Below are positions 15,684 to 20,548 of a stretch of 64,000 nucleotides of DNA, piece by piece (position 1 is the first letter of the stretch; each line of letters begins with the position of its first letter). This DNA is from Naegleria gruberi (lineage: Eukaryota). The notes under the pieces are model-generated. The model saw only the letters and a list, made by a program, of their open reading frames with translations, was not told the DNA's origin and searched no databases. The position numbers were made by a program, and so were the translations under genes. Where the stretch lies: assembly GCA_000004985.1 (NCBI GenBank), contig GG738918.1. One strand, written 5' to 3'.

Positions 15684-17234
15684 ATGTTGAACAATAAACG
15701 AAGCAATCCATCATCATCCTCATCATCAGGAAATGTTGGATCAATGTTACCTCCAACAAAGAAGCCTAAAACACCATCGGTTGCTTCATCATCATCATCA
15801 TTGGGTGTTGTCGGATCATCAACATTTAATTTAAAACAACATTTTCAACTTGTTAAGAAACAAATAGACTTGTGCATACAACAATATGAAAAGAATGTTG
15901 ATATTAAAGATTTACTAGTACAATTGAACGAGTTTATAATAACTTTGAATGAAAATTTGTCAACACAAATAGATTTGTTGATTAATTTTGTTAAAGATTT
16001 GAATGGATTGCAAATATTTATTAAAATTATTGAATATGATTATATTTTCAATGCTGATTTGGACTTGTATTTGAATATATTTAAATTATTTAAAGAAATA
16101 ACACAAGAGGAATCAAATCAAGAGGAATATAATCAATATATTGTATTTATGGATACTTTATCTCAAGATGAATATTTTATTAGTTTATTTATTGATTTTA
16201 TATTGAAATATTTGAAAGATGAAGATTTTATTAATGAAATATTCCCATTTTTAGAAAATATGATTGAATATGATGATGAAACTCTAAAATTTATTTCTAA
16301 AGATAATATTAAATTATTGCTCGACTTTTTAGTTAATAATTTGAATAATAATGAATACTCAAGCTATACACAATTATATTTTTATGAAATTCTGTTTTTA
16401 TTAATATCAACTAGTAATCCAAATATTGAAGCTACATTAGTAGAAAACAAGGAATATATGGATAAATTATTAATATTATTAAATGAATTCAGAAATATCA
16501 AGAATGATACTAATATGGAAGTTGATGAAATGGTAGAAAATTTATTCAATATTCTAAGTGGAATTTTAATTAAGAATGAAAAGTTTAAGGAATACTTAAA
16601 TGAATTTGAAGGAATTGAACTAATGATAGCAATAATTAAAGATAAAAAGAAATATAGATTAGGAAGTATTAAAGTATTAAATAATTCTATGGATAATTGT
16701 CAATTAAACATTTCACAATTTGTGCAAAGTGGAGGATTAAAGACATTATTTGCTCTGTTCAGTAGATTGAAAGATTCAGATGACGATGTTATGGAAACTA
16801 ATTTAATTAATATTTTTGTAAATTTACTAAACTCAAAGGATGATCTTTCTCAAAGACTTTCTGCTAAATTTGAGGAAAACCAATTTGAAAAACTCAAAAT
16901 CCTAAACCAGTTATTGTACAAATATTACAAAAAGGTTTATATTTTCGATCAACAAATTGAAAATGAGGATTTATTACAAGAAATGTTCCCAGACCAAACA
17001 TTAGAGGAAATTACAGAACAGGACATTGCACTTAAAAGATTAGATATTGGTTTGGAAGTTTTACAGAGAATATGCTTTGTTTTGGCTCACCTATGCTCTG
17101 CAAGTGAAAAGGTGAAACAATTTGCCAAGGACAATCTTTCAGAAAAGTATAAGATTTCGCTGGAAACATGCAAAGTTCTTTTACAAGATTCCATCTTAGA
17201 TGTTCCAGAAGCATTGCTAAATAATCTCGATTAG
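15684..17234 (+). CDS. Beta-catenin-like protein 1 (CTNNBL1/NAP) homolog
   Basis: C-terminal block ...KRLDIGLEVLQRICFVLAHLC... matches CTNNBL1 ...RRLDAGLFVLQHICYIMAEIC.... Also ENLFNILSGIL ~ ENLFDSLCSCL and LKTLFALFSR ~ LRTIFPLFMK. 516 aa, armadillo-like composition. Confidence 0.7.
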   Translation: MLNNKRSNPSSSSSSGNVGSMLPPTKKPKTPSVASSSSSLGVVGSSTFNLKQHFQLVKKQIDLCIQQYEKNVDIKDLLVQLNEFIITLNENLSTQIDLLINFVKDLNGLQIFIKIIEYDYIFNADLDLYLNIFKLFKEITQEESNQEEYNQYIVFMDTLSQDEYFISLFIDFILKYLKDEDFINEIFPFLENMIEYDDETLKFISKDNIKLLLDFLVNNLNNNEYSSYTQLYFYEILFLLISTSNPNIEATLVENKEYMDKLLILLNEFRNIKNDTNMEVDEMVENLFNILSGILIKNEKFKEYLNEFEGIELMIAIIKDKKKYRLGSIKVLNNSMDNCQLNISQFVQSGGLKTLFALFSRLKDSDDDVMETNLINIFVNLLNSKDDLSQRLSAKFEENQFEKLKILNQLLYKYYKKVYIFDQQIENEDLLQEMFPDQTLEEITEQDIALKRLDIGLEVLQRICFVLAHLCSASEKVKQFAKDNLSEKYKISLETCKVLLQDSILDVPEALLNNLD

Positions 17235-17243
17235 ATTCTCCTT

Positions 17244-19263
17244 TTATTCTTTCTTTGAATAAATTTCTTTAATTCTTGTTAATTCTTGAACAAGATCAGA
17301 AGCAATAATTCTAGACTTTGGATCTATAACTAGGATCTTCCTCAATAATTGAATAAACTCTTCGGCAGCATCATTCTTGTAAATTTTTCTGATTTCTCCT
17401 TCAATTACATTTTTCATGTAAGTGTCACGATTGTAACTTGCCAAATAAGCATGATTCAATTGGTCTTTATCAATTTTTAAAGTTAACAACTCGTACAAAA
17501 TAATACCAAAAGACCAAATGTCAACTTCAAATCCGTAAACACTAACATCATTGACAAGTGCAATTTCAGGTGCAGTATATCCGAAATTCACAATCTTTGT
17601 AATACCTCCAATAATTGAAAGTGTGTTATTGATGGCTTTAGCAAATCCAAAATCTCCAATTTTTAATACTTTTTCTCCACTACTTGTTGTGGTTGTGCCA
17701 TTACTAGTACTTGTACTTGTATTACTGAGACCAAAATAGATATTATTTGGTTTTAAACTTCTGTGCATAATCGAGTGATCATGTAAAAATTGTACACCTT
17801 TAGCAATTTGTAAAGCATAATCACTGATTCTACGTAAAGTCAAGTGAATATTCTTTTTCTTAACCTTGCACATAAAATCATATAGAGAACCTTCATCATA
17901 GAAAGGTGTGACATAGCAAACAAAGAAAATGCTGCCTAGTATTTCATTGGTTGTAATATCAATAAACATATCCTCATAACTAATTAAATGGTCAAATTGT
18001 AATTCTAATAGCGGCCAACTTTCTTTAATTGCATCATTGGCATTCATAATAGTTTCACATTTAATTTTTTTCAATATCTTTGCCTTGTTAAACTTCAAAT
18101 CCATAATTTTATACAACATTGATTCACCTGATTTTGATGCTTGATTTGAAATGTATTGTACAATTTTGTATCTTCCATTTTGAATGAGTGTATCATTTGG
18201 TAATATTAAAGATGTTTGTTCATTGAATACATCAAATACATTGAATATTCCTGATGAAGATGATGGTGAGCTTAAATTTGGTGTTGTTGTGTTAGGTGTA
18301 TTTAATGTACTTTCTTCATTTCCTATTTGATTCATATTTAATTGTGCATCAGTAGAATCGTGAATAATTATTGACAAATCCACTTGTCCAGTAGTATTTC
18401 CTGTTAAATGTATTGATAATGGATTTTCTCTATTTCTTAACAATGTCTATTTTATCCAAGTATTTAATGGTCATGTATTAAATTAACATTATAATAAATA
18501 TTTAAACATTTAAAGTGAAAACACATACCTGTAAATTAATATTTTTAACACCTAACAATTCATCAGTCTTGAAAGTGTGTTTAGCCCAAACTTGCATAAT
18601 TATATTCTCGTGTATTACATATTTCTGATCATTATTGTTAGTAACATGAATATCAAAAATAAACAATTCATTCCAAACAGGACTTGTAGATCTAATTGCA
18701 TTGGATTTTAATGTTCTTCTATTATAACCTCTAATATTATTAGAACCACTGCTATTATAATTGGAAGAATCAAATTCACTCAATTTAGAACAAGCAATAG
18801 AACAAATAAAAACAACATAGGTATTACATGGTGATAATTGTTGTTGTTGTTGTTGTGTTTGTTGAACTGTAATAGTTGATGTATTAGATTGTACCGAACG
18901 TTCATAGATGTGTGATCCTTGCTTGAGATAAATTTCAATGTGTGGAACAAGAATATTATTATTGGTAGCCTTCTTCTTACTCGTATATAAATTATGTTGT
19001 CTTCTATTAATTATTGTATTGGATTGATTGGATAAATAACTACTGATCGATGCTGTGCTGATCAATGATGATGTAGAGGAAATATTATTTGGAAGTGTTG
19101 AAAAACTATTGGTGTGGTGGTGATGAGGAGATGACGATGAAGGAAGCCCAACAGGACTACTCGATCCAGTCAGAGAACTTAACGATGTAGTGCTGGATGA
19201 TGTTGTAGGACTGTGTCCTAACAAGTGATGAGAAATATTACCAGATGATGATGAAAAATTCAT
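17244..19263 (-). CDS. C2-domain + protein-kinase-like protein, predicted pseudokinase; 2 exons (intron 18447..18528)
   Basis: Exon 1 is 19263..18529. It has a Ser-rich N-terminus, then a C2-like segment KSNAIRSTSPVWNELFIFDIHV...IMQVWAKHTFKTDELLGVKNINLQ. Donor is CAG|GTATGT and acceptor AATAG|ACA. Exon 2 is 18446..17244 with kinase motifs KIGDFGFAK, GYTAPE and DIWSFGIILYELLT. The catalytic loop reads HRSLKPNN (HRD to HRS) and no GxGxxG loop is evident. Confidence 0.7.
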
Positions 19264-19529
19264 ATTTTCTCTCTCGTCTGTTGTTACTCGTTAATATATT
19301 ACAAATAGGTTCAAAAAAGAATTGTATAATCCTATTAATTATTATTATTAAATTGTTGTTTGTTGATTCCGCTTGTTTGCTGACTTTGCCCAAGAGAATG
19401 GAAATTTTCGCTGCAGCAAAAGAAGGGAATTTTTTATAATTTTTTAAAAAACAAAAAAAATGCTTGAAATTGGAACTTTTCGGACAAAATGTTTCTTTAA
19501 TTTGTAATTTTTGTTAATAATATTTGATA

Positions 19530-20548
19530 AATTACAAATCAGTGATGGCCAGTCTTCCTTTGATATCTTTATCATTAATGTGGATGTATCTTTCGACTGG
19601 AATTAACAAATCTTTGGTTTTCAAATATTCTGCATGTTGTTCGTGGACGTATTTAGTAATATCCTCTATTTTCTTACAGGCACCAGATTTACACATTGAT
19701 CTTAAAAATGATCCTTTGACTCCTATTTGAATTGCTCTGGTTAAACCTCCATTAATATTTCCGAATGCAGGTGTATGATATGGATCCCACTATTATTTAA
19801 AATTAATTTAGAATTAAAATTCAATTAAAAGAATATTAAAATTAAATATAATACGGAAACATACCTGCACTCTTGCAAAGCAAACATTATCTGTCATAAT
19901 GGTATCAGTATCATTCTTATTCATTAATTGAGCTACTTTTTCTTTCATTTGAGAACAATTGACTTTCCATTCTTTTTGTGATTTGTAATAACCTTCCAAT
20001 TCAGGATAATACATTGCACACACAGCATGTTTCAGTAATTCTTCTTCAAATGATTTTCTAGTGATGAATAGAGCCAAAATATTAGTTTGATTTTTAGCAG
20101 TGGCATATTCAGATCTGTACATCATCCACAAATAATTTGGTTTAATCCAACTCATTCGTTTCTTATCAAAATTTGGACATTCATCAAATGTTTGATTTTT
20201 AACCACCCAATCAGCAATTCCCGAATTATAGGCCTGATAAAATACAATACATTCTTCATCGTCGATTGTAATAATTGATCCAGTAACTTGTTGTGTAATC
20301 ATGATACCCAAAGTTGATGATTCATCGGCAGAAGATGGTTGTGTCGATGAAAAAGTGAGTGGAGATTTAAAATAGTGTCGTGTTGAATTTTCAAAGCTTT
20401 CTTTTGGTAATTGATCAAAGTATGATGGCATTGTTGAGGATTGTTGTGTTGAATAGAATTTTTGTGTTGCAAAATTACAAGAATAATTGATCGGAGAGAA
20501 AGTAAGATTCTTCAATGATTGATGACCAATTTTGCTTATTTTTTTCAT
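19530..20548 (-). CDS. Conserved hypothetical protein (possibly DUF4291-like), 2 exons (intron 19790..19864)
   Basis: Exon 1 is 20548..19865, ending ...CFARVQ|GTATGT. Exon 2 is 19789..19530, starting TAG|WDPYHTPAFGNINGGLTRAIQIGVKGSFLRSMCKSGACKKIEDITKYVHEQHAEYLKTKDLLIPVERYIHINDKDIKGRLAITDL*. The family assignment is from memory and weak. Confidence 0.5.

Follow-up and report, generated by a model that had tools for sequence, protein, structure and literature searches.

A predicted pseudokinase with a C2 domain and a NEK-like kinase domain is maintained by selection in Naegleria gruberi

We examined a gene of Naegleria gruberi located on the minus strand between positions 17,244 and 19,263 of a 64,000-nucleotide stretch of contig GG738918.1 (assembly GCA_000004985.1). 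The whole stretch is referred to here as the window, and all positions are those of the window. Two minus-strand open reading frames (ORFs; 18502..19263 and 17244..18443), when spliced, encode a 645-aa protein that consists of a Ser/Thr (S/T)-rich N-terminus, a C2 domain and a protein kinase domain, in this order. The gene is real, with domain matches far beyond chance; it is under strong purifying selection and is no relic. In the kinase domain, the Asp of the HRD motif is replaced by Ser. Comparison with related sequences makes it highly likely that the product is a conserved, functional protein without a catalytic base. Our reading of the gene, to which we attach a probability of about 0.75, is that it encodes a selectively maintained pseudokinase composed of an S/T-rich tail, a Ca2+-independent C2 domain and a NEK-like domain, and that the catalytic base was lost in the common ancestor of Naegleria and Willaertia.

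The kinase domain and its key residues are located as follows.

17280..18170, minus strand: protein kinase (pseudokinase) domain, NEK-like, approximately residues 338-634, placed by Pfam Pkinase and by the family profile against the PDB.
18120..18137, minus strand: degenerate Gly-rich loop remnant SKSGES, residues 349-354, placed by family alignments and the start of the Pfam match.
18069..18071, minus strand: Lys371 (ILKKI), equivalent of the VAIK lysine, retained, an invariant alignment column.
17757..17759, minus strand: Ser475, codon AGT, at the position of the HRD Asp (IMHRSLKPNN), placed by alignments and seen in a second allele.
17652..17654, minus strand: Asp510 of DFG (KIGDFGF), retained, placed by alignments.

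All of the motifs quoted in an initial annotation of this DNA (SPVWNELFIFDIHV, VWAKHTFKTDELLGVKNI, IMHRSLKPNN, KIGDFGFAK, GYTAPE and DIWSFGIILYELLT) are present in the product. That annotation had proposed alignment against kinase hidden Markov models (HMMs) as a check. Both models (PF00069/PF07714) scored above their gathering scores, placing the protein in the eukaryotic protein kinase superfamily: Pkinase matched residues 356-632 (E 4e-32, 112.1 bits, cut-off 31.7) and PK_Tyr_Ser-Thr gave E 1e-22 and 81 bits (cut-off 23.1). The alignments found the HRD Asp missing, the VAIK Lys present and the Gly-rich loop degenerate. Ser475 aligned with the HRD Asp of B-Raf, of canonical active kinases and of active members of the family to which the protein belongs. 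In the orthologues this position is Asn, encoded by AAT in N. fowleri and N. lovaniensis (both HRN), and Asn also in Willaertia magna (YRN, within IIYRNLNLNN). The replacement of the catalytic-loop Asp was thus borne out, with Ser, Asn, Asn and Asn across the four species.

We defined a pseudokinase operationally as a kinase domain that lacks at least one of the VAIK Lys, the HRD Asp and the DFG Asp. In the N. gruberi protein only the HRD Asp is missing, K371 and D510 being present, and one such loss is sufficient for the definition. Further retained residues are the alphaC Glu (E387), Lys477 and Asn480 of the catalytic loop, the Arg of HRD (R474), APE, the Asp of subdomain IX and the Arg of subdomain XI. 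The activation-loop Thr is also kept, and is invariant across the whole C2-kinase family. K371, E387, K477, N480, D510, R474 and this Thr are all invariant or near-invariant in the family. The Willaertia orthologue has degenerated further, with His to Tyr in HRD, Lys to Asn in the catalytic loop (LNLNN) and DFG to DFH.

Concerning the Gly-rich loop, the initial annotation had found none upstream. There is indeed no canonical loop, but a degenerate remnant lies in the same exon as the rest of the domain. It reads SKSGES in N. gruberi, SKGGDS in the other Naegleria species and SKTGDY in Willaertia, compared with xKGGFGx in active paralogues, and is preceded by a 4-residue insertion relative to the latter. 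The Pkinase match begins at profile position 15 in N. gruberi, 26 in Willaertia and 1 in the active relatives. A missing upstream exon bearing a canonical Gly-rich loop was ruled out, as the orthologues are continuous ORFs with the same degenerate loop. Nor is a further exon needed for the VAIK Lys, as the initial annotation had allowed; K371 and E387 both lie in exon 2 and the N-lobe is not missing. The proposal of a pseudokinase therefore survives in so far as the operational definition applies and no exon restores the Gly-rich loop. On the other hand, 'catalytically dead' is a prediction from the sequence; the residues for ATP and Mg binding are kept, and the protein may bind nucleotide or have residual activity.

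The relatives of the protein were collected by exhaustively searching 1.84 billion representatives with a profile, supplemented with cluster names, Pfam and a local C2 HMM. An initial search with the full-length, low-complexity sequence had given only 10 significant hits among 8,000 candidates, and the family emerged only with the profile search. All named members of the C2 + kinase family are from Heterolobosea. The pseudokinase orthologues are those of N. gruberi, N. lovaniensis (P0002), N. fowleri (P0003) and Willaertia magna (KAL9645186.1, P0013). Active paralogues with intact GGFG, HRD and DFG were found in Willaertia magna (KAL9643241.1, P0018), N. fowleri (P0193) and N. lovaniensis (XP_044553839.1, P0060), and Acrasis kona (KAL0481324.1, P0105) and several metagenome proteins are further active members. 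The comparison with paralogues suggested in the initial annotation therefore shows that related genomes hold active HRD copies and that the N. gruberi gene is no orphan; the gene marks the inactive branch of a C2 + NEK-like family. In a neighbour-joining tree the pseudokinases formed a clade with 100% bootstrap support, as did a clade of active paralogues ("active A").

Because the orthologues carry HRN, HRN and YRN, the loss of the Asp is, as judged from these sequences, old and fixed. In the simplest history, the Asp would have been lost once (GAY to AAY) before the split between Naegleria and Willaertia, and the resulting Asn codon would then have changed from AAT to AGT in N. gruberi, giving a path from Asp (GAY) through Asn (AAY) to Ser (AGT).

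When the family profile was compared with single-kinase-domain structures in the PDB, the best matches were NEK7, NEK1 and NEK2 (E 5e-46 to 1e-41), with a modest margin over PKR, ULK and CDK (160 versus 134-140 bits). The active paralogue also scored best against NEK1. The N. gruberi protein alone matched B-Raf and CDK7/8 first. One family member has been labelled 'NIMA-related kinase' by JGI, and an Acrasis member has been automatically annotated 'inaC'. Taking into account the small margin over PKR, ULK and CDK, and a domain order that is reversed relative to canonical NEKs, we refer to the family as NEK-like and do not claim full membership of the NEK family. The gene is already in databases as a generic kinase, and the family appears there as 'hypothetical protein' or generic 'kinase'. 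A literature search found no paper on this gene or on the C2 + NEK-like architecture, which is undescribed and has so far been seen only in Heterolobosea.

Two Cys residues are invariant in all members of the C2-kinase family, active or not: Cys375 (approximately 18057-18059), which follows the VAIK Lys in KKIKC, and Cys422 (approximately 17916-17918) in strand beta5 (VC[YF]V). They may have a structural or redox role that is particular to this family.

A second N. gruberi-like allele was present on a contig of metagenome ERZ929261 (L001), which spans positions 16950-19283 of the window and is 99.3% identical to it. Both the intron and HRS recur on this contig. A sequencing error at the Ser475 codon was ruled out, as this independent contig has the same codon. 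Outside the S/T-rich insert in the kinase domain, the coding differences between the two alleles comprise six synonymous and no non-synonymous changes. All differences outside the insert are synonymous or non-coding, and within the insert (residues 490-495) the second allele has a rearranged sequence that keeps the frame.

Selection was examined by the method of Nei and Gojobori, as the ratio of non-synonymous to synonymous substitutions (dN/dS) between N. lovaniensis and N. fowleri. The kinase domain gave a dN/dS of 0.10 (dS 0.45), the C2 region including its variable inserts 0.275 (dS 0.60) and the inter-domain linker 0.55 (dS 0.85). Comparisons with N. gruberi gave similar ratios, but with saturated dS.

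We considered the possibility that the protein is still an active, atypical kinase, in which Asn or Ser is tolerated at the HRD position, or in which another residue or the substrate itself handles the proton. The ligands for ATP and Mg and the regulatory residues are all kept in the three Naegleria species, and the very strong purifying selection on the kinase domain (dN/dS 0.10) would accord with such an enzyme. In addition, weak activity is known for HER3 (HRN) and the JH2 domain of JAK2 (HGN). Nevertheless, the catalytic Asp is missing in all four orthologues, and the Gly-rich loop has lost its first and third Gly, bears an acidic tip residue and follows a 4-residue insertion. In Willaertia the catalytic-loop Lys, the HRD His and the DFG Gly are gone as well, which fits a release from catalytic constraint, and paralogues with canonical motifs coexist with the pseudokinases. 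We therefore regard a still active kinase as unlikely, and favour a pseudokinase.

A second alternative concerns the deposited gene model. The locus corresponds to the N. gruberi NEG-M entry XP_002670203.1 / EFC37459.1 ("serine/threonine protein kinase", 624 aa), which is identical to our 645-aa model save for one difference, the removal of 63 nt as an additional intron.

17654..17716, minus strand: 63-nt in-frame segment STSTSNGTTTTSSGEKVLKIGD, identified by comparing the deposited model with the orthologues.

This segment encodes an S/T-rich insert specific to N. gruberi together with strand beta8, and takes in one base, the first, of the codon for the DFG Asp. The RefSeq splicing exchanges STSTSNGTTTTSSGEKVLKIGD for a single Asn (N), and strand beta8 and the DFG Asp are thereby lost. 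If the deposited model were right, the product would be a 624-aa protein with the sequence SNT-N-FGFAK, a more degraded pseudokinase. The segment does begin with GT and finish with AG, the spliced form is the one deposited as XP_002670203.1, and most of the differences that separate the two N. gruberi-like alleles fall inside it. These differences, however, preserve the frame and the S/T/N/G composition. Moreover, the length of the segment is a multiple of three, it contains no stop codon, and its 5' site is GTACAA, unlike the GTATGT of two confident introns nearby. VLKIGD, encoded by its 3' half, is conserved throughout the orthologues, where VLKIGDFG lies within continuous, uninterrupted ORFs. 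For these reasons, together with the single-exon structure of the orthologous genes, the additional intron is probably an annotation error and a real intron here appears improbable. The RefSeq gene model that removes the DFG segment is accordingly corrected here.

A third alternative is a relic without function, left by the decay of a duplicated active C2-kinase gene. This would accord with the loss of the catalytic Asp and the Gly-rich loop and with the growth of low-complexity inserts in the C2 loops and in the region of the activation segment, but is highly improbable in view of the intact syntenic ORFs in three Naegleria species, the Willaertia orthologue, the dN/dS of 0.10 in the kinase domain and the six synonymous to zero non-synonymous differences between the alleles outside the insert; a pseudogene was ruled out by the dN/dS values.

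The fusion of a Ser-rich region and a C2-like domain to the kinase fold, described in the initial annotation, was recovered by Pfam, which identified both C2 and Pkinase.

18354..18951, minus strand: C2 domain, approximately residues 105-276, interrupted by the intron, placed by Pfam, AlphaFold2 (AF2), Foldseek and alignment with canonical C2 domains.

Pfam C2 (PF00168) matched residues 182-254 with E 7.7e-8 and 32.9 bits, against a gathering score of 22. Weak sequence matches of the region were found with the C2 domains of CC2D1/Lgd, ferlins and Munc13. A search with the family C2 profile recovered only PF00168 proteins, mostly redundant Doc2-like fragments from insects, and added no new members to the family. 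As had been suggested for the N-terminal exon, the fold was modelled. An AF2 model of residues 102-280, based on an alignment of 17 sequences, had a pLDDT (predicted local distance difference test score) of 83.5 and a predicted template modelling (TM) score of 0.80. In a Foldseek comparison with the PDB, the top 50 matches were all C2 domains, with TM scores of up to 0.81 on the target; they include Trichomonas C2 proteins, plant E-Syt C2A, cPLA2, the C2A domains of myoferlin and dysferlin, Munc13 C2B and PKC-epsilon. The model thus confirms a C2 fold, an eight-stranded beta-sandwich, that spans the intron.

Loop 1 of the domain contains a Q-rich insert, and strand 2 is followed by another of 25 residues, rich in Ser and Asn. 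The core strands are nearly identical among N. gruberi, N. lovaniensis and N. fowleri despite the variation in inserts, and the low-complexity inserts of the C2 loops and linker (residues approximately 120-145 and 207-215) differ greatly in length among the three species. An insert after strand 4 is short in N. gruberi and has about 70 more S/Q-rich residues in N. fowleri.

Ca2+-dependent C2 domains of the synaptotagmin, PKC-alpha and cPLA2 type use five acidic ligands in loops 1 and 3, in the patterns D...SDPY and WDxDxxxxxD. Aligned with canonical C2 domains, the N. gruberi protein has CNTY in place of SDPY and W-A-K-H in place of W-D-x-D. The first ligand position of loop 1 has no aligned counterpart, owing to the Q-rich insert, and the only ligand Asp kept is the last one (TDELLG). 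Ligands are therefore lost at at least three of the five canonical positions. The initial annotation had taken the C2 domain to suggest membrane/Ca-regulated scaffolding; with the canonical positions mostly lost, Ca2+ regulation is unsupported for the N. gruberi protein, and binding of lipid or protein independent of Ca2+ would be the likelier role. The C2 domain of the Acrasis protein (P0105), on the other hand, retains the canonical residues (DTNGFSDPF and WDRD). The family is thus a case in which a C2 domain has lost its Ca2+ ligands while deeper members keep them.

How such a protein might act can be considered from the residues that it keeps. Because the Lys-Glu pair, the Mg ligands (Asn480 and the DFG Asp), the Arg of HRD and the activation-loop Thr are retained, as they are in pseudokinases that bind nucleotide, take up active-like conformations and exert allosteric control over a partner kinase, we infer a non-catalytic role. 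The protein would no longer phosphorylate substrates at a useful rate, and may serve as a conformational module sensitive to nucleotide, to phosphorylation or to both. The C2 domain probably holds it at a membrane or another surface, where it could scaffold or allosterically regulate a partner. The foremost candidate for this partner would be the active C2-NEK-like paralogue, by analogy with STRADalpha-LKB1, HER3-HER2 and KSR-RAF. We propose only tentatively that the pseudokinase regulates its own active paralogue at the membrane. A more particular version seems rather doubtful, in which the protein is an allosteric subunit switched by nucleotide or phosphorylation and partnered with the active C2-NEK-like paralogue at the surface of a membrane or of the cytoskeleton, or else carries out a non-canonical ATP-dependent reaction. 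If true, such a pairing would amount to a 'kinase plus pseudokinase' module of the NEK type, seen to date in Heterolobosea alone.

Several points weigh against the picture of a dedicated pseudokinase with a paralogous partner. All residues that bind ATP and Mg are kept, with the exception of the Gly-rich loop, and residual or unconventional catalysis is accordingly possible. The full-length AF2 model, for which only three orthologues were used, had a pLDDT of 30 and is uninterpretable, so the arrangement of the domains is not deducible from it. An active/inactive pair of paralogues would be common to the brain-eating amoeba N. fowleri and the laboratory model N. gruberi, yet active copies were recovered directly only from N. 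fowleri, N. lovaniensis, Willaertia and the metagenomes, and not from N. gruberi. The sister grouping of the pseudokinase clade and "active A" had a bootstrap value of only 48%, and the identity of the partner paralogue is therefore a guess. Even so, the active/inactive pair is a tractable case for studying regulation of a kinase by a pseudokinase outside animals and plants.

Pseudokinases make up about a tenth of most kinomes. The N. gruberi protein would be an ordinary one, plausible and unsurprising to a kinase specialist; it represents no new kind of system and opens no long-standing question. Its closest counterparts are the active heterolobosean C2-NEK-like kinases, which have the same architecture, with the C2 domain at the N-terminus and a short linker leading to the kinase domain at the C-terminus. 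These share with it KKIKC, VC[FY]V, the invariant activation-loop Thr and T-L-N after subdomain IX, and the identity in the kinase domain is 24-35%. They keep GGFG, HRD, the catalytic-loop Lys and DFG, whereas the pseudokinases have HRS, HRN or YRN and a degenerate Gly-rich loop with an insertion. Unlike that of the N. gruberi protein, the Acrasis C2 domain also has Ca2+-binding Asp residues.

Both the family profile, by a modest margin, and the active paralogue score best against NEKs. In canonical NEKs the kinase domain stands at the N-terminus, ahead of regulatory regions towards the C-terminus; in the 645-aa N. gruberi protein the C2 domain comes first and the kinase domain last (residues 338-634). 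To our knowledge, no NEK with an N-terminal C2 domain is known. The combination of a C2 domain with a Ser/Thr kinase domain is shared with protein kinase C (PKC), but the kinase domain here is NEK-like and not AGC-like. Pfam detected neither a C1 domain (PF00130) nor the C-terminal extension of AGC kinases (Pkinase_C, PF00433) in the N. gruberi protein or in any family member, and a PKC-like identity was ruled out on this basis.

HER3/ErbB3, JAK JH2 and STRADalpha likewise have Asn or Ser in place of the HRD Asp. HER3 has HRN, JAK JH2 has HGN and STRADalpha has HRS. They belong to unrelated kinase groups (TK and STE) and carry other accessory domains. The nucleotide-binding residues are largely kept in HER3 and JAK JH2, and STRADalpha lacks DFG as well. 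Weak autophosphorylation remains in HER3 and weak activity in JAK2 JH2. HER3, JAK JH2, STRADalpha and KSR all act as allosteric partners of active kinases. In Giardia, Nek kinases without catalytic residues have been interpreted as structural or regulatory pseudokinases (PMC3243723).

The two-exon structure put forward in the initial annotation agrees with the 645-aa model, and the gene is divided as follows.

18529..19263, minus strand: exon 1, codons 1-245, with the ATG at 19263, from the ORF list, splicing and translation, and collinearity with orthologues; it contains the S/T/H-rich low-complexity N-terminus (approximately residues 1-85, 19009-19263) and strands 1-6 of the C2 domain.
18447..18528, minus strand: intron of 82 nt, GTATGT...AAAATAG, phase 0, within the C2 domain.
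17244..18446, minus strand: exon 2, codons 246-645, with the stop codon at 17244-17246; it contains the end of the C2 domain, an S/T/N-rich linker and the entire kinase domain.

The junction between the exons (...NINLQ|TLLRNREN...) is collinear with the orthologues (TISLQSLVRNREN in the alignment). The N. lovaniensis orthologue (L002 6001-8193) and the N. fowleri orthologue (L003 6001-8262) are both uninterrupted single-exon ORFs, from which we conclude that the junction is valid and that no exon is missing. The 82-nt GT..AG intron within the C2 domain is found in N. gruberi and not in N. fowleri or N. lovaniensis, and represents a lineage-specific gain or loss. The window as a whole is AT-rich (GC approximately 0.27-0.35), with short GT..AG introns and homopolymeric coding runs of Ser, Thr and Gln. 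Scanning the window with tblastn revealed no tandem paralogue.

A CTNNBL gene (beta-catenin-like protein 1; PF08216, E 2e-50), located on the plus strand at 15684-17234, runs towards the 3' end of the kinase gene in convergent orientation, leaving only 9 nt between the two stop codons. CTNNBL is likewise the neighbour at the N. fowleri locus (L003 8380-10470), and this shared synteny supports the orthology. Upstream of the kinase gene, on the minus strand at 19532-20548, lies a two-exon gene for a 313-aa DUF4291 protein (PF14124, E 5e-49), whose intron (19789-19864) reads GTATGT...AATAG, like that of the kinase gene.

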